From Escherichia coli (GTDB lineage: Bacteria > Pseudomonadota > Gammaproteobacteria > Enterobacterales > Enterobacteriaceae): 64,000 bases of DNA. The DNA is taken from the NCBI RefSeq assembly GCF_030384885.1, contig NZ_CP128613.1, one strand, 5' to 3'. The position numbers and the translations under genes are program-made. Within the stretch, counting starts at the first letter, position 1. Each line of letters begins with the position of its first letter. Below, piece by piece: positions 8,261 to 59,392 of this stretch. The notes beneath the pieces are model-generated. The model saw only the letters and a list, made by a program, of their open reading frames with translations. It was not told the DNA's origin and did no database searches.

Positions 8261-9748
8261 ATGCAATACATCAAGATCCATGCGCTGGATAACGTCGCGG
8301 TTGCTTTAGCAGATTTGGCGGAAGGCACAGAAGTCAGTGTCGATAACCAGATTGTTACGCTGCGCCAGGATGTTGCTCGTGGACATAAATTTGCGTTAAC
8401 GGATATCGCAAAAGGGGCCAACGTCATTAAATATGGCCTGCCGATTGGTTATGCATTGGCGGATATTGCGGCGGGGGAACACGTTCACGCCCACAATACG
8501 CGCACGAATCTGAGCGATCTGGATCAGTATCGCTATCAACCTGATTTTCAGGATCTGCCTGCGCAAGCGGCAGATCGTGAAGTGCAGATCTATCGTCGCG
8601 CGAACGGCGATGTCGGGGTGCGTAATGAGCTGTGGATCCTGCCAACCGTGGGTTGTGTTAACGGCATCGCGCGGCAGATCCAGAACCGTTTCCTGAAAGA
8701 GACCAACAACGCCGAAGGTACTGACGGCGTGTTCCTCTTCAGCCACACCTACGGCTGCTCGCAGCTGGGCGACGATCACATCAATACCCGCACCATGCTG
8801 CAAAATATGGTGCGCCACCCGAACGCGGGCGCAGTGCTGGTGATTGGTCTGGGCTGTGAAAACAACCAGGTTGCCGCATTCCGTGAAACGCTGGGTGATA
8901 TCGATCCTGAACGCGTTCATTTCATGATCTGCCAACAGCAGGATGATGAGATCGAAGCCGGGATCGAGCATTTGCATCAGCTGTATAACGTGATGCGCAA
9001 CGACAAGCGTGAGCCAGGCAAACTCAGCGAACTGAAGTTTGGTCTGGAGTGCGGTGGTTCTGACGGTCTTTCTGGTATTACTGCTAACCCGATGCTGGGG
9101 CGTTTCTCTGACTACGTGATTGCTAACGGCGGTACTACCGTACTGACCGAAGTGCCGGAGATGTTTGGCGCAGAGCAGTTGCTGATGGACCATTGCCGCG
9201 ACGAAGCAACGTTTGAAAAACTGGTCACTATGGTCAACGACTTCAAACAGTACTTTATTGCCCATGACCAGCCGATCTATGAAAACCCATCGCCGGGGAA
9301 CAAAGCGGGCGGTATCACCACGCTGGAAGACAAATCACTTGGCTGTACCCAGAAAGCGGGTTCCAGCGTCGTGGTTGACGTGCTGCGTTACGGCGAGCGT
9401 CTGAAAACGCCGGGGCTGAACTTGTTAAGTGCGCCGGGTAACGATGCCGTAGCGACCAGCGCCCTGGCGGGTGCGGGCTGCCATATGGTGCTGTTCAGTA
9501 CTGGTCGTGGCACGCCGTATGGTGGATTTGTGCCGACGGTGAAAATCGCCACCAACAGTGAACTGGCGGCGAAGAAAAAACACTGGATCGACTTTGACGC
9601 GGGTCAGCTGATCCACGGTAAAGCGATGCCGCAGTTGCTGGAAGAATTTATCGACACCATCGTTGAGTTTGCCAATGGTAAACAAACCTGCAACGAGCGT
9701 AACGACTTCCGCGAACTGGCGATCTTTAAAAGCGGCGTAACGCTATAA
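8261..9748 (+). CDS. uxaA: Altronate dehydratase UxaA (495 aa)
   Basis: ORF track 495 aa MQYIKIHALDNVAVALADLAEGTEV...; immediately downstream of uxaC (operon). Confidence 0.95.
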   Translation: MQYIKIHALDNVAVALADLAEGTEVSVDNQIVTLRQDVARGHKFALTDIAKGANVIKYGLPIGYALADIAAGEHVHAHNTRTNLSDLDQYRYQPDFQDLPAQAADREVQIYRRANGDVGVRNELWILPTVGCVNGIARQIQNRFLKETNNAEGTDGVFLFSHTYGCSQLGDDHINTRTMLQNMVRHPNAGAVLVIGLGCENNQVAAFRETLGDIDPERVHFMICQQQDDEIEAGIEHLHQLYNVMRNDKREPGKLSELKFGLECGGSDGLSGITANPMLGRFSDYVIANGGTTVLTEVPEMFGAEQLLMDHCRDEATFEKLVTMVNDFKQYFIAHDQPIYENPSPGNKAGGITTLEDKSLGCTQKAGSSVVVDVLRYGERLKTPGLNLLSAPGNDAVATSALAGAGCHMVLFSTGRGTPYGGFVPTVKIATNSELAAKKKHWIDFDAGQLIHGKAMPQLLEEFIDTIVEFANGKQTCNERNDFRELAIFKSGVTL

Positions 9749-9772
9749 AGTCGAAATGAGTTGTTAATAAAA

Positions 9773-9808
9773 AACGGCGTTTCATAATGTGAAGCGCCGT
9801 TTGCTTTT
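9773..9808 (+). terminator. Rho-independent terminator after uxaA
   Basis: Hairpin aacggcgtttc/gaagcgccgtt with 7-nt loop, followed by tgcttttcc. Confidence 0.55.
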
Positions 9809-9830
9809 CCATACCTGCTAAGGATTTATC

Positions 9831-10382
9831 ATGACCGCGTATTGGCTGGCCCAGGGCGTGGGTGTCATCGCCTTTCTGATTGGTATCACAACATTTTTCA
9901 ATCGTGACGAACGTCGCTTCAAAAAGCAGCTTTCGGTCTATAGCGCCGTTATTGGCGTACATTTTTTTCTTCTGGGCACCTATCCCGCTGGTGCCAGTGC
10001 CATCCTTAATGCCATTCGTACGCTGATTACCTTACGCACGCGCAGCTTATGGATAATGGCGATCTTCATCGTGCTGACGGGAGGAGTTGGCCTGGCGAAG
10101 TTCCATCATCCCATGGAGCTGCTGCCGGTTATCGGCACGATTGTCAGTACCTGGGCGCTGTTCCGTTGTAAAGGGCTGACCATGCGCTGCGTGATGTGGT
10201 TTTCTACTTGTTGCTGGTTAACTCACAACATTTGGGCCGGGTCGATTGGTGGCACAATGATTGAAGGCAGTTTTCTGCTGATGAATGGCCTGAATATCAT
10301 TCGTTTTTGGCGTATGCAGAGAAGGGGAATTGATCCGTTTAAAGTGGAGAAAACCCCTTCCGCCGTAGACGAAAGGGGCTAA
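9831..10382 (+). CDS. ygjV: Inner membrane protein YgjV (183 aa)
   Basis: ORF track 183 aa MTAYWLAQGVGVIAFLIGITTFFNRDERRFKK...; hydrophobic multi-pass. Confidence 0.85.
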   Translation: MTAYWLAQGVGVIAFLIGITTFFNRDERRFKKQLSVYSAVIGVHFFLLGTYPAGASAILNAIRTLITLRTRSLWIMAIFIVLTGGVGLAKFHHPMELLPVIGTIVSTWALFRCKGLTMRCVMWFSTCCWLTHNIWAGSIGGTMIEGSFLLMNGLNIIRFWRMQRRGIDPFKVEKTPSAVDERG

Positions 10383-10385
10383 GTA

Positions 10386-11630
10386 TTAGTTACGCAGGGC
10401 GCTATTTGCCAGACGATCGTCTTCCGCCTGGCAAGCTGCTGCAGTGAACAGCACGTCAGTTGAAGAGTTCAGCGCGGTTTCGCAAGAGTCCTGCAATACG
10501 CCGATGATAAAGCCGACGGCAACCACCTGCATGGCGATATCGTTCGAAATACCGAACATATTACAGGCCAGCGGGATCAGCAGCAGAGAACCACCTGCCA
10601 CGCCGGACGCACCACAGGCGCACAGAGAAGCCACTACGCTCAACAGCAGCGCCGTTGGTAGATCCACCGGAATACCCAGCGTATTAACCGCAGCCAGCGT
10701 CAACACGGTAATGGTGATTGCTGCGCCCGCCATATTGATCGTTGCACCTAGCGGAATAGAAACGGAATAGGTATCACGATCCAGATTCAGCTTTTCACAC
10801 AGCGCCATATTCACCGGAATGTTCGCCGCAGAGCTGCGGGTGAAGAAGGCGTACACGCCGCTTTCGCGCAGGCACAGCAGCACCAGCGGGAACGGGTTAC
10901 GACGAATTTTCCACCACACCAGCAATGGGTTAACCACCAGCGCCACCAGTAACATACAGCCAACCAGCACGACCAGCAGTTGCGCGTAGCCCCACAGTGT
11001 GGAGAAACCGGTGGTAGCCAGGGTAGAAGAAACCAACCCAAAAATACCGATCGGTGCGAAGCGAATGACCAGTTTCACCATAAAGGTGACGGCATTCGAC
11101 ATATCGTTGATCAGGTTTTTGGTGGTCTCGTTACCATGACGCAGTGCGAAACCGAGGCCAATTGCCCACACCAGAATCCCGATGTAGTTACCTTTCAGCA
11201 GCGCGTCGATGGGGTTGGAAACCATGCTCATTACCAGCCCGCGCATCACTTCGACAATGCCTGACGGCGGCGAAATATCACCCGCGCTACTGGACAAGTG
11301 CAGGGTAGAAGGGAAGGCAAAGCTGAAGACTACTGCGGCCAGAGCAGCAGAGAAGGTGCCCAGTAGATAGAGGAACAAAATAGGACGGATATTGGTTTTC
11401 TGCCCGTGCTGGTGGTTAGCAATAGACGCCATTACCAGCATCAACACCAGGATGGGGGCAACGGCTTTCAGTGCGCCGACGAACAAAGTACCTAACAGAC
11501 CGACAGCTTCCGCCGCCGGTTTTGAGATCCATGCCAGAAGAATCCCCAGAACAAGGCCGACCAGGATTTGTTTTACCAGGCTGCCATGAGCCAGACGCCG
11601 GAATAGCCCCGGTGAACGTTGCGTAGTCAT
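10386..11630 (-). CDS. sstT: Serine/threonine:Na+ symporter SstT (414 aa)
   Basis: ORF track 414 aa [29 protein letters not shown]... matches remembered SstT. Confidence 0.95.
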
Positions 11631-12099
11631 TTTTCGATCCTTTCATTGTGTTGTCGCACATCCCTGGTGCGTTCTGTCGACGCATCTTTCAGGATGTAAC
11701 AAAGTGTTTGCAAGGTCGAGTATAAGGAAAGTTACAGCTTCGGGAAGCGAAAAATGCTGGATTTTAAAGAGATGTCATATTTTGCAACTTAATGGTTACA
11801 TTTGTTTGACATAAACAGAGGGAAGGACTGGCTGCTGAGACTGATTAGATAACATATAGGCAAAACTATTTGGCATATGAGAACTGTTGCGCTCCTGTGA
11901 TGTGCTATGCCATATAAAGTCACTGGCGCAGGGAGCGGCCAATCGCCGCTGCCCCGGCCTCCAGGGCACGCTTCGGTGATTTTGACGCCACTAACACCCA
12001 AGCGATCTTTTTGTAAAGAGCTATAAGTCGGTTACATACTTAATCGCTCATCTTTGTCTGGAATGAGTTATCACCCGTAGTGGCTTAATATACAGCGAA

Positions 12100-13065
12100 T
12101 TATCCCACCCGCTGCTTATCATGCCGATAATTCACCCAGGCGTTGATAATAAACGTCATCACCAGAATGCCAAACACCACGCCCAGCGAAACGGCGATCG
12201 GAATATGGTAGAAATCGACAATTAGCATCTTGATACCGATAAACACCAGAATCACCGCCAGACCATATTTGAGCATCGAGAAACGTTCTGCTACGCCCGC
12301 CAACAGGAAATACATCGCACGCAGGCCGAGGATCGCAAACAGGTTTGAGGTCAGCACAATAAACGGATCGGTGGTCACGGCGAAAATAGCCGGAATGCTA
12401 TCCACGGCGAAAATCACGTCGCTCAACTCCACCAGAATCAGTACCAGCATCAGCGGCGTGGCATACAACAAACCATTCTTACGCACAAAGAAATGCTCGT
12501 TGTCGATGGTGTCGGTCATGCGCAAATGACCGCGCAGCCAGCGCACCAGCGGCTTGTCACCAATACCTGATTCATCTTCATGAGCCAGCGCCATCTTCAC
12601 GCCAGTAAACAGCAGGAAGGCACCGAAGATATACAGGATCCAGTCGAACTGCGAAATCAGCCAGCTGCCAGTGAAGATCATGATGGTACGCAGAACAATC
12701 GCCCCGAGTACGCCATACACGAGCACGCGGCGTTGTAATGCCGCCGGAACAGAGAAATAGCTGAACAACATCAGCCAGACGAAGACGTTATCGACCGCCA
12801 GTGATTTCTCAATCAGATAACCCGTGAGGAAGGCCAATGCCTGAGGGTCCGCGACTTCGCGCCCCTGTGTCTGCGCCAGATACCACCAGAAAGCGGCATT
12901 AAACAATAACGACAGTGTCACCCAGACCAGCGACCAGGCCGCAGCCTGTTTCATGGTCATGGCATGTGCCCCGCGACGCCCCTGCAACAACAGGTCGATA
13001 GCCAGCATAATGACGACAACAACAGCGAATCCGCCCCATAGCAACGGCGTGCCGACAGTATTCAT
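12100..13065 (-). CDS. alx: TerC-family membrane protein Alx (321 aa)
   Basis: ORF track 321 aa [37 protein letters not shown]... Confidence 0.9.
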
Positions 13066-13300
13066 AGAAGTTCCTTACACATAAAAAAACGGCCAACGTC
13101 GGAAGACGTCAGCCGCTGCTTTTTATGCATAGACCTCGCCTTCCGGCAAGGTCTCACTTACAACAAAAAAGGAATACGTCTGCGTATTCCTTTCGGGTTG
13201 CCCGGTGACCGGATGTGGTTTTTCACACATCGTAATGACGATCGACCGGCAATGAAGTTACTCCCCTTTGCAGGTAACAAAGTATGACAGACCATTCGGT
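13066..13300 (-). promoter_or_regulatory. alx 5' leader carrying a yybP-ykoY-type (Mn2+/pH-responsive) riboswitch element
   Basis: Minus-strand leader contains the conserved AAAGGGGAGUA motif (complement of 13255..13270) plus several hairpins; sits between ygjR stop and alx start, as in the described alx PRE/SraF leader. Confidence 0.6.
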
Positions 13301-13347
13301 CAGTCAATGGTCTGTTACATACCTTTTACACTGTTTTACTTTGGCTA

Positions 13348-14334
13348 TTATAGTTTTACGCTATCTGCCGGAAAAATCACCCCGGTCTGGCGGCGGATCT
13401 CGGTCAGCAGCCTGGCGGTGATACGACTGACCGCCAGCCCTGGATGATCTACCAGATGTTCATCCACCAGGGTAGCGAACAGCTCTGCTTCGTACAGCAT
13501 GGTATTAATATGCTGCGGCTGGGTAAGATCCTGCATCTGGCTGCCGCGCGGCACATAGCAAACTTTCTGGCATTCAGACAGTTTTTCAATCACCAGCGAT
13601 CCCGCTTCGCCCTGAATCTCACTTGCCAGCACAGAATCACTGACCTTTGAGTGCTGCAAGGTAACGCTGAAATCACCGTAATCCATCACCACCACGCCGT
13701 GGGCATCCACACCACTTGCCAGCAAACTGGCGGTTGCCTGCACGCTTTTCGGTTCACCAAATAACGCCACCGCCGACGCCAGGCAGTAAAAGCCGATATC
13801 CATAATTGAACCGTTAGAGAATGCTGGATTAAAGGTGTTGGGATTCTCGCCGTCCAGATAACGCTGATATCGCGAGGAATACTGGCAATAGTTGAAAAAG
13901 ACTTTACGCAATTTGCCAACTTTCGGCAGTACCTGGCGTAACAAATGGAAATTCGGTAGGCTGGCGGTTTTAAATGCCTCAAACAGCACCACCTGATTTT
14001 CCCGCGCACAGGCAATGGCGGCATCCACTTCCGCCAGATTCGACGCCAGCGGTTTCTCGCAAATCACATGAATTTTATGGCTAAGGAAAAGTCGTGTCTG
14101 GGGAAAATGCAGGGCATTCGGGCTGGCAATATACACCGCGTCAATAGCATCACTTTCTGCCATCGCTTCCAGCGATGTAAACAGATGCTCGACAGAAAAA
14201 TCATTGGCGAAGTGCTGGGCCTGTTCAAGGCTGCGGGAATAGACAGCGGTTAACTTGTATTTACCGCTCTCATGGGCGGCCTCGACGAACTGGCGGGTGA
14301 TCCAGTTCGTGCCAATCACAGCGAAACGTATCAT
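13348..14334 (-). CDS. ygjR: Gfo/Idh/MocA-family NAD(P)-dependent oxidoreductase YgjR (328 aa)
   Basis: ORF 13348..14352; start at MIRFAVIGTNWITRQFVEAA (Rossmann N-terminus), ATG 14332..14334. Confidence 0.85.
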   Translation of the reverse strand: MIRFAVIGTNWITRQFVEAAHESGKYKLTAVYSRSLEQAQHFANDFSVEHLFTSLEAMAESDAIDAVYIASPNALHFPQTRLFLSHKIHVICEKPLASNLAEVDAAIACARENQVVLFEAFKTASLPNFHLLRQVLPKVGKLRKVFFNYCQYSSRYQRYLDGENPNTFNPAFSNGSIMDIGFYCLASAVALFGEPKSVQATASLLASGVDAHGVVVMDYGDFSVTLQHSKVSDSVLASEIQGEAGSLVIEKLSECQKVCYVPRGSQMQDLTQPQHINTMLYEAELFATLVDEHLVDHPGLAVSRITARLLTEIRRQTGVIFPADSVKL

Positions 14335-14412
14335 AACGCGTGGATACTCCATAAAGGGATTCTGCCGTCAATGTAGCACGCCTTTTTCATCTTCGACGTG
14401 CGCAGATACGCA

Positions 14413-15105
14413 TTATTCTTTCGCCGGACAGCCATGCTCGCTAAACGGCCCAATCATGACCGACGGCCCGAGATATTTCGGCTGTCGATGGAGGATTTTC
14501 GCGTCAATCACTGCGCTGACGCGAGCGAGTTTCTCCCGCAGCTGAGTATAAAAACCATGTTTCATATTCAGGTCTGGTGCGTTAAACCCGATGGCATCGA
14601 TGCCGTACTGTTTTGCCAGCCAGATGGCGCGTTGGTTATGAAATTCTTGCGAAATAATAGTGATATGGCTTTCACCAAACACCTTTTTGGCACGCACCAC
14701 CGAATCAAGCGTTGAGAATCCGGCATAGTCGCAGAAGATGACTTTTGCGGGTACGCCTTTAGCGATCAAAGCCTGCTGCATGCCTGAGGCTTCATCGTAA
14801 TTTTTACGTCCGTTATCGCCGCTCACTAGTAGCCATTTCACTTTTCCGGCGTGGTACAACTCTGCTGCGGTATCAATACGTCGGGTAAAGTAGCGATTAC
14901 CCGGCCTCGCCCCCAGCAATAAACCCACGTTACGCGCCGGAACGGCGTTGACATCGCTCCTGGTCAGCTGCTTGCTGGCGTTGACCATAACGCGATCGGC
15001 AATAAAAATGGTCGCTCCTGCTATAAGCAACAATAAACAGCCAAGCTTTAGAGTCCGGCGAGAAAAACAAATACGGAGAAGAAGGCGGGCAAAGGCGCGC
15101 AGCAT
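14413..15105 (-). CDS. ygjQ: DUF218-family protein YgjQ (230 aa)
   Basis: ORF track 230 aa [32 protein letters not shown]... with N-terminal membrane anchor. Confidence 0.85.
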
Positions 15106-15181
15106 GGTCGTTATCCTTAACGAAAGGGGGGAGGTCGATTTTAGGCGCTAAAGGAAGAAAAGATAACGCCTGATATCATTT

Positions 15182-15684
15182 TCAGATTTTGTCCTGCCCA
15201 AGCGACAACTGCGTTAGCCACAGACGAGTGTCGAATTCAAGCTGGTGGTACTGCGGCTCCATATGACAGCACAATTGATAGAACGCTTTGTTGTGCTCTT
15301 TCTCCTTCAGGTGCGCCAACTCGTGCACCACGATCATGCGCAAAAACGGTTCCGGCGCGTTGCGAAACACGGTAGCGACGCGGATCTCTGCTTTTGCTTT
15401 CAGCTTGCCGCCCTGCACACGCGAAACAGCGGTATGTAACCCGAGCGCGTTTTCAGCACATGGATCTTGTTGTCATACATCACTTTATTGATCGGCGGGG
15501 CATTGCGCAGAAACTGATTCTTCAGATCCTGAGTATATTGCCAGAGGGCTTTATCGGTGGCGTAGTCGTGCGTTCCTGGATAGCGTTTTGCCAGCACATC
15601 GCCCAGACGCTGTTCATTAATCAGCGTGCGCACCTGGGAAAGCAACTGTTCGGGATAACCCTGAAGATAAGTAAGATTGCTCAT
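15182..15684 (-). pseudogene. ygjP: ygjP (HEXXH metal-dependent hydrolase), split by a frameshift near 15433..15435
   Basis: N-terminal part ([28 protein letters not shown]...KTRSGY) is in ORF 15400..15720 and the C-terminal part ((V)QGGKLKAK...MIVVHELAHLKEKEHNK...) in ORF 15182..15418, in different frames overlapping by 19 nt; frames rejoin if 2 nt are removed from ggtATgtaacc. Confidence 0.7.
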
Positions 15685-15768
15685 AACCGCCCACGAAAAA
15701 GAGAAAAAGGGTATACTCACGCACCCTTTTCAGGGGCAACGTCGAAATTTTATCATTCAGGAGGGCCG

Positions 15769-16905
15769 ATGAGCCACTTAGACAACGGTTTCCGTTCACT
15801 GACACTACAACGTTTTCCGGCGACGGATGACGTTAACCCGCTACAGGCGTGGGAAGCGGCAGATGAATATTTGCTGCAACAGTTGGACGACACAGAAATC
15901 CGCGGCCCGGTGTTAATCCTGAATGATGCCTTTGGGGCGTTAAGTTGTGCGCTGGCGGAACATAAGCCGTACAGCATTGGCGACTCATACATCAGCGAAC
16001 TGGCGACGCGCGAGAATTTACGCCTCAACGGGATTGATGAATCGAGCGTGAAGTTTCTCGACAGCACCGCTGACTACCCGCAACAGCCGGGCGTGGTGCT
16101 GATCAAAGTGCCGAAAACACTGGCATTGCTGGAACAGCAACTGCGCGCATTGCGCAAAGTAGTCACGCCGGATACACGTATTATTGCTGGTGCTAAAGCC
16201 CGTGACATTCACACCTCCACGCTGGAACTGTTCGAAAAAGTGCTCGGCCCGACCACCACCACACTGGCATGGAAGAAAGCGCGCCTGATTAACTGCACTT
16301 TCAACGAGCCGCCGCTGGTTGATGCACCGCAGACCGTTAGCTGGAAGCTGGAGGGTACTGACTGGACTATCCACAACCATGCGAATGTCTTCTCACGCAC
16401 CGGGCTTGATATTGGCGCGCGCTTCTTTATGCAGCATCTGCCAGAGAATCTCGAGGGTGAGGTTGTCGATCTCGGTTGTGGTAACGGCGTTATTGGCCTG
16501 ACGCTGCTTGATAAAAACCCGCAGGCGAAAGTGGTGTTTGTCGATGAATCACCAATGGCGGTTGCTTCCAGCCGTTTGAATGTTGAAACCAACATGCCAG
16601 AGGCGTTGGATCGCTGCGAGTTTATGATCAACAACGCGCTCTCCGGCGTGGAGCCGTTCCGCTTTAATGCTGTGCTCTGCAACCCGCCGTTTCACCAGCA
16701 ACATGCACTGACCGATAACGTTGCCTGGGAAATGTTCCACCACGCGCGCCGCTGCCTGAAAATCAACGGCGAGCTGTATATCGTTGCCAACCGTCATCTG
16801 GATTACTTCCATAAACTGAAGAAAATTTTTGGCAACTGCACCACCATTGCTACGAATAATAAATTTGTGGTGCTGAAAGCGGTGAAACTGGGGCGTCGTC
16901 GGTAA
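15769..16905 (+). CDS. rlmG: 23S rRNA m2G1835 methyltransferase RlmG (378 aa)
   Basis: ORF 15394..16905; start at [21 protein letters not shown] with GGAGGG Shine-Dalgarno; SAM-methyltransferase motifs ([12 protein letters not shown]). Confidence 0.9.
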
Positions 16906-17100
16906 GTCTTGTTTGTAATGCCGGATTGCGGTTGAAATGCCCGATCCGGTAAATAAGTTCATCGCTATATCATTATTTCTAATCTATTTTTCAGAATAAA
17001 ATTGTTCTAAATACGAAAGGTCCGTTTAAGGACTTTTTTGTCAATTTGCTACTCTATATTATTAACAATCTTTTTCAGCATTACATCGAACGGAATAATT

Positions 17101-17898
17101 ATGGATAAATATACTTTGCTAGGACTTGCTGTTACTGTTCCTGTTGCTCTTACATGGGCTTGGTTAGATGTAAAAAGAAAACGTAAAAAAAGAGATAATG
17201 CTCCGTTGTTAAATGATACGATGCGATTTGTTAATGGAACGCACCTTGTAATCACTGTATTAAACGGCGGTGATTATCGGTTATTAGCGGGCCATGAGTA
17301 TAATAAAGATAACCGCCTTACTGCAAAAGGTCGTTGTAAACGCTTCTGGGGAGTAGAAGACATATCAGCGGGTATGGAGATGCTCCAGTCGCTTGTTGAT
17401 GGTCGACATAACGAACAATTTCTTCAAGAGCTTAAACACATAACTGAAAATGTCATAAATTTAGAGACAGAGCAAAACTGGCAAACATTATTCACAAATA
17501 TCACTGATAAAAAAATGCTTACTAAAATGAGAGTAATGCATGATGCGCATCTTGATTTTGGCAATAATGCGATTCTTGCATGGGATTTAAGTCGGGCAAA
17601 TCATTTATTAGCAGATTATTATTTGGCTGGGTGGATAGATGAACAACGTTATATAAAAGAAGTCTTTGATGTAACATCGAAAATTCAGAAAAATTTTTCT
17701 TCATGGGACGAGTTTAATAAAAGCTATTTATATGGTTATCTTTGGTGGAGTGGGGAAGATCAACAACATGATCTTAAAAAATTAGGCTGCTATCATAATA
17801 GGGTAATGATTATAAATAAACAGAAGGATGTGGCTAATAGTCCCTTTAAATTAGACTGGGATACACCATTAAAAATAGAAACGTCACCCTACGCTTGA
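17101..17898 (+). CDS. Hypothetical membrane-anchored protein (265 aa from ATG; 286 aa if TTG at 17038 is used), unknown function
   Basis: Long uninterrupted ORF in a visibly AT-rich segment; N-terminal hydrophobic helix LLGLAVTVPVALTWAWL followed by KRKRKKR; stop 21 nt before higA start; no match to any K-12 protein I recognise. Confidence 0.6.
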   Translation: MDKYTLLGLAVTVPVALTWAWLDVKRKRKKRDNAPLLNDTMRFVNGTHLVITVLNGGDYRLLAGHEYNKDNRLTAKGRCKRFWGVEDISAGMEMLQSLVDGRHNEQFLQELKHITENVINLETEQNWQTLFTNITDKKMLTKMRVMHDAHLDFGNNAILAWDLSRANHLLADYYLAGWIDEQRYIKEVFDVTSKIQKNFSSWDEFNKSYLYGYLWWSGEDQQHDLKKLGCYHNRVMIINKQKDVANSPFKLDWDTPLKIETSPYA

Positions 17899-17919
17899 GC
17901 CAATTACATAAGGGCGAAA

Positions 17920-18336
17920 ATGATTGTGATTTCCAACATTTTGCAAGAAGGAGAAAAAATAACCGTGGTGGCACCTTTTCTGGCGGGTATTCAGAACGAG
18001 GAACAATACACCCAGGCGCTGGAACTGGTAGATCATCTGCTGCTCAACGATCCTGAAAAACCCTTGCTGGATCTGGTGTGTGCCAAAATAACCGCGTGGG
18101 AAGAATCAGCGCCCGAATTTGCTGAATTTAATGCCATGGCTCAAGCCATGCCTGGCGGTATAGCTGTGATTCGTACCCTTATGGATCAATATGGTTTAAC
18201 CCTTTCCGATCTGCCGGAAATTGGCAGTAAATCGATGGTGTCACGCGTTTTGAGCGGGAAGAGGAAATTAACGCTGGAACACGCTAAAAAACTGGCAACG
18301 AGATTCGGCATTTCTCCCGCCTTGTTTATTGATTAA
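17920..18336 (+). CDS. higA: HigA-type HTH (XRE-family) antitoxin (138 aa)
   Basis: ORF track 138 aa; ...APFLAGIQNEEQYTQALELVDHLLLNDPE...SKSMVSRVLSGKRKLTLEHAKKLATRFGISPALFID matches remembered HigA (YgjM); AAGGG Shine-Dalgarno upstream. Confidence 0.85.
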   Translation: MIVISNILQEGEKITVVAPFLAGIQNEEQYTQALELVDHLLLNDPEKPLLDLVCAKITAWEESAPEFAEFNAMAQAMPGGIAVIRTLMDQYGLTLSDLPEIGSKSMVSRVLSGKRKLTLEHAKKLATRFGISPALFID

Positions 18337-18344
18337 CGCGACGT

Positions 18345-18365
18345 GCCGGATGCGGCGCATCCGGC
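18345..18365. repeat. REP-like perfect palindrome between convergent higA and fadH (possible bidirectional terminator)
   Basis: gccggatgcg-g-cgcatccggc: 10-bp inverted arms around one central base. Confidence 0.5.
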
Positions 18366-18380
18366 GCTTCAAACAACGAT

Positions 18381-20402
<2,022 letters not shown>

Positions 20403-20519
20403 TTATCCAGTATGTAAAATAATTGTTATGTGGTCGGATGAGTTCTAATTTAGCCGTCGCCGGGGAAAAGGGAAAAGGGGAATGCGGGGTTTGTGATGGG
20501 AATCAAAAAGAATAGGCTG

Positions 20520-21012
<493 letters not shown>

Positions 21013-21020
21013 GTTGCAAA

Positions 21021-26072
<5,052 letters not shown>

Positions 26073-51260: not shown

Positions 51261-52466
51261 TTACGCCGCCTTACGGGCGCGTCCTTTACGGACTGACGGC
51301 AATATTTGTCCTGCCGCCATGACTTCAAAACCTGCTGTTAATATATTTCGAGCGCCGTTTACATCGGCGTTTGCCGTATAGCCGCACGCGGTACAGATAA
51401 AGCTCGCCTGCGCCCTGCGGTTAATTTTCGATGTATGCCCACAACATGCGCATTTCTGACTGGTGTACGCCGGATTAATCGCCAGCACATCACCGCCGCG
51501 CCATGCCTGCTTATATTCGAGCTGGCGGCGCATTTCTGCCCAGCCCTGATCCAGTATCGCTCGGTTAAGACCTGATTTTGCCGCGACGTTGCGCCCCGGC
51601 TGGTCTACCGTACCCGCTGCTGATTTTGACATGTTCGAAACCTTTAAATCCTCAATGACTATCATCGCGTGGTTTTTGCTGATCGTCGTCGTGGTTTTAT
51701 GAAGGTAATCGCGGCGGATGTTTGCGATATGAGAGTGGAAACGGGAAATCTTCGCTTTCTGCTTTTTCCAGTTGGCGGAGAATTTAACCTTCCGGGCCAG
51801 ATGGCGCTGTAAGCGAGCCAGCTTATCCTGATTTTTTTTAAAGCTGTTTACCGGTTCAAAGATCGTGCCGTCTGAAAGTGTTGCCAGCTTCGTTATACCT
51901 GCATCCAGGCCTATTGCGCTGGTCGATGCGTGAATCGGATCGGTAACAGCTAATTCGACCTGAAAAGACACATACCAGTGTCCGGCATGCTGGCTGATGG
52001 TGCAATTTTTAATGACGCCTTCAATCTTCCGGGACTGACGAAATTTAACCCAGCCCAGTCCTGACGGGAGTTTCACACGGCCATAATCCAGCCCACAATA
52101 TTTGCTGAAATTGACGAACCGGATAGAGTCGCAGCCTTTGGTTTTCTTTTTGAAAACGGGCTTTTCAGCCGTCAGGGATTTATCAAAACAGCGATCCCAT
52201 GCGCTCCGCAGGTCTTTCAGTTTCTGCTGGAGGTTGTCAGTGTAACCCTCAGCAAGAAAGGCCAGCTCAGGGAGTTTTTTCCAGCCCGTAAGTCGTTTAT
52301 TCAGGTCGAAAGCTGACGGAATTTTTCCGCCCGCGTCATGAATGCTCAGTGTTTCATTCAGTGCATAGTTCCAGACAAAGCGAGCGCAACCGCACAACTG
52401 ACGCAACCTTTGCGCCTGCTGGTCAGTGGGGTAGAGCCTGTATTTATATGCTTTCTGGATTAACAT
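51261..52466 (-). CDS. tnpB: TnpB (IS200/IS605 OrfB; RuvC-like RNA-guided endonuclease, 401 aa)
   Basis: ORF track 401 aa MLIQKAYKYRLYPTDQQAQRLRQLCGCARFVWNYALN...; RuvC motifs (IGLDAGI, VIEDLKV, NADVNGARNI) and CxxC...CxxC zinc finger (CACCGHTSKINRRAQASFICTACGY). Confidence 0.85.
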   Translation of the reverse strand: MLIQKAYKYRLYPTDQQAQRLRQLCGCARFVWNYALNETLSIHDAGGKIPSAFDLNKRLTGWKKLPELAFLAEGYTDNLQQKLKDLRSAWDRCFDKSLTAEKPVFKKKTKGCDSIRFVNFSKYCGLDYGRVKLPSGLGWVKFRQSRKIEGVIKNCTISQHAGHWYVSFQVELAVTDPIHASTSAIGLDAGITKLATLSDGTIFEPVNSFKKNQDKLARLQRHLARKVKFSANWKKQKAKISRFHSHIANIRRDYLHKTTTTISKNHAMIVIEDLKVSNMSKSAAGTVDQPGRNVAAKSGLNRAILDQGWAEMRRQLEYKQAWRGGDVLAINPAYTSQKCACCGHTSKINRRAQASFICTACGYTANADVNGARNILTAGFEVMAAGQILPSVRKGRARKAA

Positions 52467-52532
52467 TTTGCATTCAGTATGTGGTTATTTAGAATGTACA
52501 ATATATCCACATTTTTTTGGGAGGATCAATAC

Positions 52533-52931
52533 GTGTGCGAAATCAATCGTTCACGCTATTCAGCTTACCTGTTGCATGTTCACGTTGTTTTTATGACAAA
52601 ATACCGCCGTCCAGTTTTTGGTGAATTGCATCATGCAAACATGCGTCAGTATGTAGCGGAGGTATGCGCGGACTTTGGCGCCGAGTTAAAGGAATGTGAC
52701 GGCGAGGCAGATCATGTTCACATGCTGATTGAATACCCACCGTTGGTGCAACTCACAAAGCTGGTAAACAGCCTTAAGTCCGTTACCAGTAGGCGGCTGC
52801 GGAATGATTTTATTGATTTGCGCGCCGCGTATTCAAAGCCCGTACTCTGGTCACGCTCTTATTTCATCGGTTCATGTGGTGGAGCACCGCTGGAAGTTGT
52901 GAAAAAGTATATTCAGAATCAGCGTGGCTGA
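52533..52931 (+). CDS. tnpA: TnpA, IS200-type Y1 HUH transposase (about 132 aa from GTG; ORF-track ATG at 52479 gives 150 aa)
   Basis: HUH motif ADHVHMLIEY and catalytic Tyr region LWSRSYFIGSCGG; strong GGGAGGA Shine-Dalgarno 7 nt before in-frame GTG at 52533. Confidence 0.8.
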   Translation: MCEINRSRYSAYLLHVHVVFMTKYRRPVFGELHHANMRQYVAEVCADFGAELKECDGEADHVHMLIEYPPLVQLTKLVNSLKSVTSRRLRNDFIDLRAAYSKPVLWSRSYFIGSCGGAPLEVVKKYIQNQRG

Positions 52932-58647: not shown

Positions 58648-58724
58648 CCGGAAAGCGGTTCACAGATCTCGCTTCGAACCAGGCAGGCCTATTGACGCTG
58701 TTGTTTTTTCAACCTAAAGTAAAG

Positions 58725-58872
58725 GAACAAGGGTAAGGGAGGATTTCTCCCCCCTCTGAATTGGTTGTTAATAAGCCTGGAAACTTACTAGTAACAACAC
58801 AATCAGTATGATGACGAACTTCATCATAACCCTTTCCTTATGCAAGGCCCCTTCCTCGGGAGGGGCTTTCCC
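58725..58872 (+). ncRNA. sibE: Sib-type antisense sRNA (antitoxin of Ibs toxin), unit nearest hldE; 5' end approximate
   Basis: Plus-strand region fully antisense to the ibs ORF, ending in hairpin gcccct-tcctcggg-aggggc followed by tttcccgttt; plus-strand ORFs here (MMTNFIITLS...) are not taken as coding. Confidence 0.45.
58768..58827 (-). CDS. ibsE: Ibs-family type I toxin, 19-aa hydrophobic peptide MMKFVIILIVLLLVSFQAY
   Basis: Hand-translated minus-strand ORF (ATG ATG AAG TTC ... TAT TAA); typical Ibs sequence; symbol assigned from proximity to hldE and may be swapped with ibsD. Confidence 0.7.
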   Translation of the reverse strand: MMKFVIILIVLLLVSFQAY

Positions 58873-59101
58873 GTTTCAGCCCCTTGCTGGCTCCCCGATT
58901 GTTGATGAGCGCCGGACCCCGCGCAATGCTTTCCCTGATGCAGTTTTCTCTTCCCCGAGTCGGCTCGCAAAACGCTGTAACAACCTGATCATTTGCAGTT
59001 TTTTGTGGAACACAGATATAAAAAATCCCCGGTTTTTTGGGCCAGGGATATGTGTTAATGAAACCTTCTTGACGCTGATTTTTTTTCAACCTAAAGTAAA
59101 G

Positions 59102-59249
59102 GAACAAGGGTAAGGGAGGATTTCTCCCCCCTCTGAATTGGTTGTTAGTAAGTCGGGAAACTTAACAGTAACAACACAATCAGTATGATGACGAACTTCA
59201 TCATAACCCTTTCCTTATGCAAGGCCCCTTCCTCGGGAGGGGCTTTCCC
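59102..59249 (+). ncRNA. sibD: Sib-type antisense sRNA, second unit; 5' end approximate
   Basis: Second copy of the repeat; same terminator hairpin at 59224..59243. Confidence 0.45.
59145..59204 (-). CDS. ibsD: Ibs-family type I toxin, 19-aa peptide MMKFVIILIVLLLLSFPTY
   Basis: Hand-translated minus-strand ORF in the second repeat unit; differs from the first copy at four residues. Confidence 0.7.
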   Translation of the reverse strand: MMKFVIILIVLLLLSFPTY

Positions 59250-59392
59250 GTTTCAGCCCCTTGCTGATTCCCCGATTGTTGATGAGCGCCAGACCCCGCG
59301 CAATGCTTTCTCTTATGCAGTTTTCTCTTCCCCGAGTTGGCTCGCAAAACGCTGTAACAACCTGATCATTTGTACTTTTTAGCGGAACGCAG

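Follow-up and report, generated by a model that had tools for sequence, protein, structure and literature searches.

The closest described counterpart of the locus reported here is ygjP of Escherichia coli K-12 (b3085, NP_417556.2), annotated as a "putative metal-dependent hydrolase", which agrees with it in chromosomal locus, synteny, PF01863 membership and HEXXH motif. The encoded protein carries the RefSeq name "M48 metallopeptidase family protein", and UniProt credits YgjP with a UTP pyrophosphatase activity, weak and in vitro, that came out of a metabolomics screen. The intact allele matches PF01863 (YgjP-like, formerly DUF45) with 43.5 bits at a gathering cutoff of 26 and also resembles the WLM and SprT-like zincin families, though more weakly and below threshold; no NCBIfam model matches the protein, and a PDB sequence search detected no relative of solved structure. 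The AF2 model of intact YgjP, made with an eight-sequence E. coli/Salmonella alignment, had a mean pLDDT of 63.8, too poor for a fold comparison. Searches of the literature returned nothing on the function of ygjP or on the present frameshift, and nothing relevant for UTP pyrophosphatase, DUF45 or PF01863. The gene is dispensable, since it lies inside a 15.5-kb deletion in the viable reduced-genome strain DGF-298 (PMC10652928).

As to the way in which the reading frame is broken, the ordinary homopolymer-slippage pseudogenes of enterobacteria are alike in having a single-base indel in a mononucleotide run and a premature stop, in a non-essential gene that is intact in close relatives, and no material difference from them was found here. 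The dnaX gene (A AAA AAG) is also alike in that the frame changes at an A run of lysine codons, but the present locus differs from genes of the dnaX type in having no heptamer, stimulatory structure, Shine-Dalgarno (SD) sequence or conserved split state. In the strain studied, ygjP is very probably an ordinary, strain-level frameshift pseudogene of an already known kind, the allele of which is already present in public data.

The window, by which the whole stretch of 64,000 nt of E. coli DNA analysed is meant (contig NZ_CP128613.1), includes the region from yqjG to ribB in an orientation reversed with respect to K-12, with rlmG, ygjP, ygjQ and ygjR in the K-12 arrangement. By position and sequence, the gene is the orthologue of E. 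coli ygjP. After repair, the protein shares 99% identity with K-12 YgjP, whereas the gene as it stands is one A short in comparison with K-12 and its ORF is split. The features of the locus are as follows.

15769-16905, plus strand: rlmG.
15182-15684, minus strand: ygjP pseudogene, from the annotated ATG at 15684 to the native stop at 15182, 503 nt against the normal 504, aligned end to end with three intact alleles.
15400-15684, minus strand: N-terminal fragment ORF of 94 aa, native residues 1-78 followed by 16 out-of-frame residues and the stop TGA 15400-15402.
15182-15418, minus strand: C-terminal fragment ORF of 78 aa, which corresponds to native residues 90-167 and takes the GTG codon of V90 as its start.
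15450-15453, minus strand: the lesion in codons K78/N79, A4 when read on the coding strand (plus strand, TTTT), against A5 in the intact alleles of the lineage; the sole gap in the alignment.
15433-15435, minus strand: site first proposed for a 2-bp insertion, the columns of which are the same as in the intact alleles; no lesion.
15293-15325, minus strand: zinc-binding motif HELAHLKEKEH, residues 121-131, read from the sequence and invariant in the E. coli/Salmonella alignment.
14413-15105, minus strand: ygjQ.

The initial annotation had described ygjP as split by a frameshift, and this description is borne out: the two ORFs (15400..15720 and 15182..15418) occupy different frames of the minus strand with an overlap of 19 nt, and the translations quoted for both frames were reproduced. 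The first of them counts 106 aa from its GTG and 94 aa from the annotated ATG. The intact YgjP of the closest complete genome, when compared with the window by tblastn, gave two HSPs, one in frame -2 (aa 1-82) and the other in frame -1 (aa 78-167), with an E value of 1.6e-94; it is therefore a real gene that is split, and the two ORFs are not paired by chance. The N-terminal fragment ends, as had been claimed, before the HEXXH motif (HELAH, residues 121-125, at 15311-15325, followed six residues later by another His at 15293-15295), which lies downstream of the premature TGA.

The nature of the lesion proved to be other than supposed. Alignment with the ygjP alleles of three complete E. coli genomes, a comparison with intact genes that the initial annotation had itself proposed, revealed one length difference only, of 1 nt, inside the mononucleotide A run: the intact CTGAAAAACGCG has become CTGAAAACGCG in the window by the loss of one A from the A5 run, so that CTG-AAAACGCG stands against CTGAAAAACGCG in all three intact alleles, with no second, compensating indel. 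Adding one A rebuilds a YgjP that is identical to WP_001295542.1 at 167 of 167 residues. The gene had instead been thought to be split by the insertion of AT at 15434-15435, and, indeed, taking out both bases also yields a single ORF, since this removal is equivalent in reading frame; however, the product then has 166 aa, 162 of them identical in an alignment of 167 columns, and TRSG-Y takes the place of NALGLH. The string ggtatgtaacc is located at 15431-15441 as reported, but all of these positions match the intact alleles, and the true lesion is found 15-20 nt away. The sole gap in the A run and the full identity after the one-A repair make the lesion a 1-nt deletion, and a 2-bp insertion, which is refuted by the alignments with the intact alleles and with an intact sibling contig described below, retains next to no probability.

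Whether such a change is a genuine pseudogenisation or a sequencing error was aptly posed as the choice from the beginning, and the evidence favours a true and very recent event. An error, in which the strain would truly have A5 and an intact ygjP with one homopolymer base under-called, is made conceivable by the lesion site being a homopolymer, and by the same run (A6 in most E. coli) being one short in many public assemblies that also split rlmG, ygjQ or ygjR. The window, however, shows nothing of this kind: 57 of the 58 reference genes are full length and gapless in it by tblastn, ygjP alone being split, and the comparison with the closest complete genome, MFDS1022581, contains a single indel in 16,907 aligned columns, the ygjP deletion itself. 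Moreover, the Logan contig ERR2987533_121, assembled independently from run ERR2987533, is 100% identical to the window over 12400-18684 (6.3 kb), including the deletion, and carries the exact 94-aa product, which is already present in the public protein collection; this contig is recorded for five samples (independent isolates or one culture resequenced), with six further similar places. The gene is, on the other hand, intact in sibling contigs, found through the DUF1266 protein encoded beside rlmG. The contig DAFGMO010000005.1 of GCA_021047425.1 (L044), aligned with the window at 13602-21398 over 7,798 nt, differs solely by one extra T in the run and encodes an intact YgjP of 167 aa, and there are 13 similar places besides, so that 14 places of the same lineage read A5. 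The sequence context therefore does not force a systematic miscall, and a sub-clone with A4 among siblings with A5 that are otherwise the same over 7.8 kb fits a very recent real mutation and not a context-driven miscall. The deletion is very probably real, and a base-calling error is regarded as improbable.

Judged by these contigs, A5 is the normal state of the lineage and A4 is confined to a sub-clone; the mutation, on the same comparison, arose in a sub-clone of an uncommon E. coli lineage, the closest sequenced siblings of which are intact. The source strain appears to belong to a lineage unrepresented among the complete genomes searched: the window is about 96% identical to K-12 (93.6-97.7% per 4-kb block), and for positions 9000-20800 (11.8 kb) identity reaches 98.8% in the best of the complete E. 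coli genomes and is 90-95% in most. A match to ygjP for a 601-nt region was found in 5,419 of 5,426 complete E. coli genomes, each match listed covering 602 record bases, and none of the 5,426 contained an exact match to the deletion allele of the window or to its equivalent on the common background. This rarity rests on a 61-nt probe and on the top-ranked matches of 99-nt probes, all spanning 100 record bases; for the latter, the band of ">=99%" is unfit for counting exact matches because one gap per 100 columns equals 99.0%.

The DUF1266 gene used for finding the siblings (PF06889, E 2e-24; 17038-18333, plus strand) occupies the place of the higB toxin gene of K-12 and of the closest complete genome, and is followed directly by an HTH_3 antitoxin gene resembling higA, the product of which shares 94% aa identity with HigA. 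This arrangement is fully covered in only one of the 5,426 complete E. coli genomes (2013C-4282), and in other lineages (contigs L017-L020) the HTH_3 gene directly follows rlmG, with neither higB nor the DUF1266 gene. The higBA locus thus has three states, with DUF1266, higB or neither beside the HTH_3 gene.

In K-12, the run reads CTA AAA AAC (A6), as against CTG followed by A5 in the lineage of the window, and at least 3,199 complete genomes match the probe of the A6 background save for one single-base gap. Other split pairs of 94 aa and 78 aa are present in the public data, namely, the N-terminal products P0012 (on 45 contigs) and P0015 (on 15), each with the C-terminal product P0017, and in them the same run is one base short and the out-of-frame tail the same as in the window; a further split allele of 51 aa (P0016) has a Shigella dysenteriae protein among its source names. 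These public alleles have the A6 (CTA) background and are 94-95% identical to the window, and they are independent of its allele. Most contigs of the P0012 and P0015 types are also split in rlmG, ygjQ or ygjR, and ygjP itself bears another indel in several of them; the splitting of neighbouring genes is the signature of noisy assemblies, and most of the other public split alleles are likely errors. A few contigs with full-length neighbours (among them L008, L020 and L021) may represent independent real events. The run being so often mis-called in noisy assemblies, the caution first expressed over a split ygjP was reasonable, and a split ygjP elsewhere is not to be trusted unchecked.

We are accordingly fairly confident that ygjP here is a recent loss-of-function pseudogene, formed when the run of five A in codons 78-79 was shortened by one. 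Such a change is typical of replication slippage at a short homopolymer, which is the most probable mechanism. Translation from the native start then loses the frame after Lys78, adds 16 wrong residues and stops at the TGA, 43 codons before HEXXH. The break is situated where the protein is best conserved: residues 56-98 do not vary between the E. coli and Salmonella proteins, the overall identity of which is 86-88%. Neither a Pfam match nor HEXXH is present in the N-terminal fragment.

The 78-codon ORF keeps the catalytic motif but neither the conserved N-terminal half nor a ribosome-binding site, and for these reasons there is probably little or no synthesis of its product. Upstream of its GTG nothing resembling an SD sequence was detected, the best anti-SD duplex there having +1.3 kcal/mol, against -6.4 kcal/mol at the native ygjP start. 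A gene that is split and yet working, with the HEXXH-bearing ORF translated by termination-reinitiation and active alone or together with the N-terminal fragment, would agree with the spacing of the two ORFs, since the GTG of the second precedes the stop of the first by 16 nt, an arrangement in which reinitiation can occur, and with the retention of the whole Pfam match in the C-terminal fragment (44.9 bits). However, besides the missing SD, the GTG is simply the native codon of V90; the N-terminal half is strongly conserved, which suggests that it is needed; and the change is one mutation old, so that nothing has been shaped by selection. Reinitiation at this GTG is unlikely on such grounds, and a functional split protein is very unlikely indeed. 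No terminator-like site was found in the 76-nt gap between ygjP and ygjQ, and some polarity of the frameshift on ygjQ and ygjR is therefore conceivable.

Programmed recoding, in which a functional full-length YgjP would be restored at the A run by ribosomes shifting frame by -1 or by slippage during transcription, was also weighed. If tRNA-Lys slipped by -1 on G AAA A, the native ...K-N-A-L... would be rebuilt, and a low level of spontaneous slippage is possible. Transcriptional slippage, however, is seen at long A/T runs, far longer than A4, and the sequence here is G CUG AAA ACG, with four A only and without an X XXY YYZ heptamer; there is no SD-like stimulator upstream, and the downstream 80 nt fold no better than their shuffles (z +1.30). 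The split state is not conserved among orthologues either, all of the roughly 5,400 complete genomes with the gene, and the siblings of the lineage, having one ORF, in agreement with the earlier opinion that a programmed frameshift in the orthologues was unlikely. Programmed recoding was therefore rejected and keeps only a minute chance of being correct. A phase-variable contingency locus was rejected as well, the tract being of just 4-6 nt and the off state not being found in the 5,426 complete genomes.

Genome decay of the Shigella type does not describe the window, the 64-kb region being otherwise intact, with no other broken gene among the 58 checked. Some further features of the region were recorded. 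Between fadH and ygjK (20526-21010), a 99-nt unit is repeated in tandem 4.9 times with 92% matching; the units resemble, on visual inspection, palindromic elements of the REP/BIME type, and their copy number varies among relatives. An element of the IS200/IS605 type (ISEc41 tnpA and tnpB), common to MFDS1022581 and absent from K-12, is found between ygiM and ygiF (51264-52928). A repeat of about 358 nt, present twice at 58692-59426, is the counterpart of two type I toxin-antitoxin loci of K-12, ibsD/sibD and ibsE/sibE. At 62261-62334, glgS and ubiK are adjacent, the fimbrial cluster ygiL-yqiGHI that stands between them in K-12, and which includes the IS2-disrupted yqiG, being absent.

In two contigs of other lineages with full-length neighbouring genes, ygjP bears deletions of 38 nt (L028; nt 222-259) and 13 nt (L037; nt 221-233), which adjoin or cover the A run (ygjP nt 221-259 correspond to about 15426-15464 of the window); deletions may be locally frequent at this spot. 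The shortening of the A run, seen on two allelic backgrounds, could also be read, together with the 13-nt and 38-nt deletions, as a sign that the loss of ygjP is selected and not neutral, with codons ~74-87 as a recurrent target of inactivation. Little credence is given to this reading, and ascertainment is the likelier cause of the clustering, the contigs having been retrieved by the exact 78-aa downstream ORF. If selection were nevertheless involved, YgjP would carry a cost in some niches.

The correct annotation of the locus is "ygjP, frameshifted pseudogene (1-nt deletion in an A5 run)", and not a 2-bp insertion. The deletion supplies a single-base marker that tells the sub-clone from siblings otherwise the same over 7.8 kb. 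For the biology of the organism, one strain-level lineage of E. coli has recently lost a small, conserved, dispensable putative hydrolase, a loss of little biological weight.
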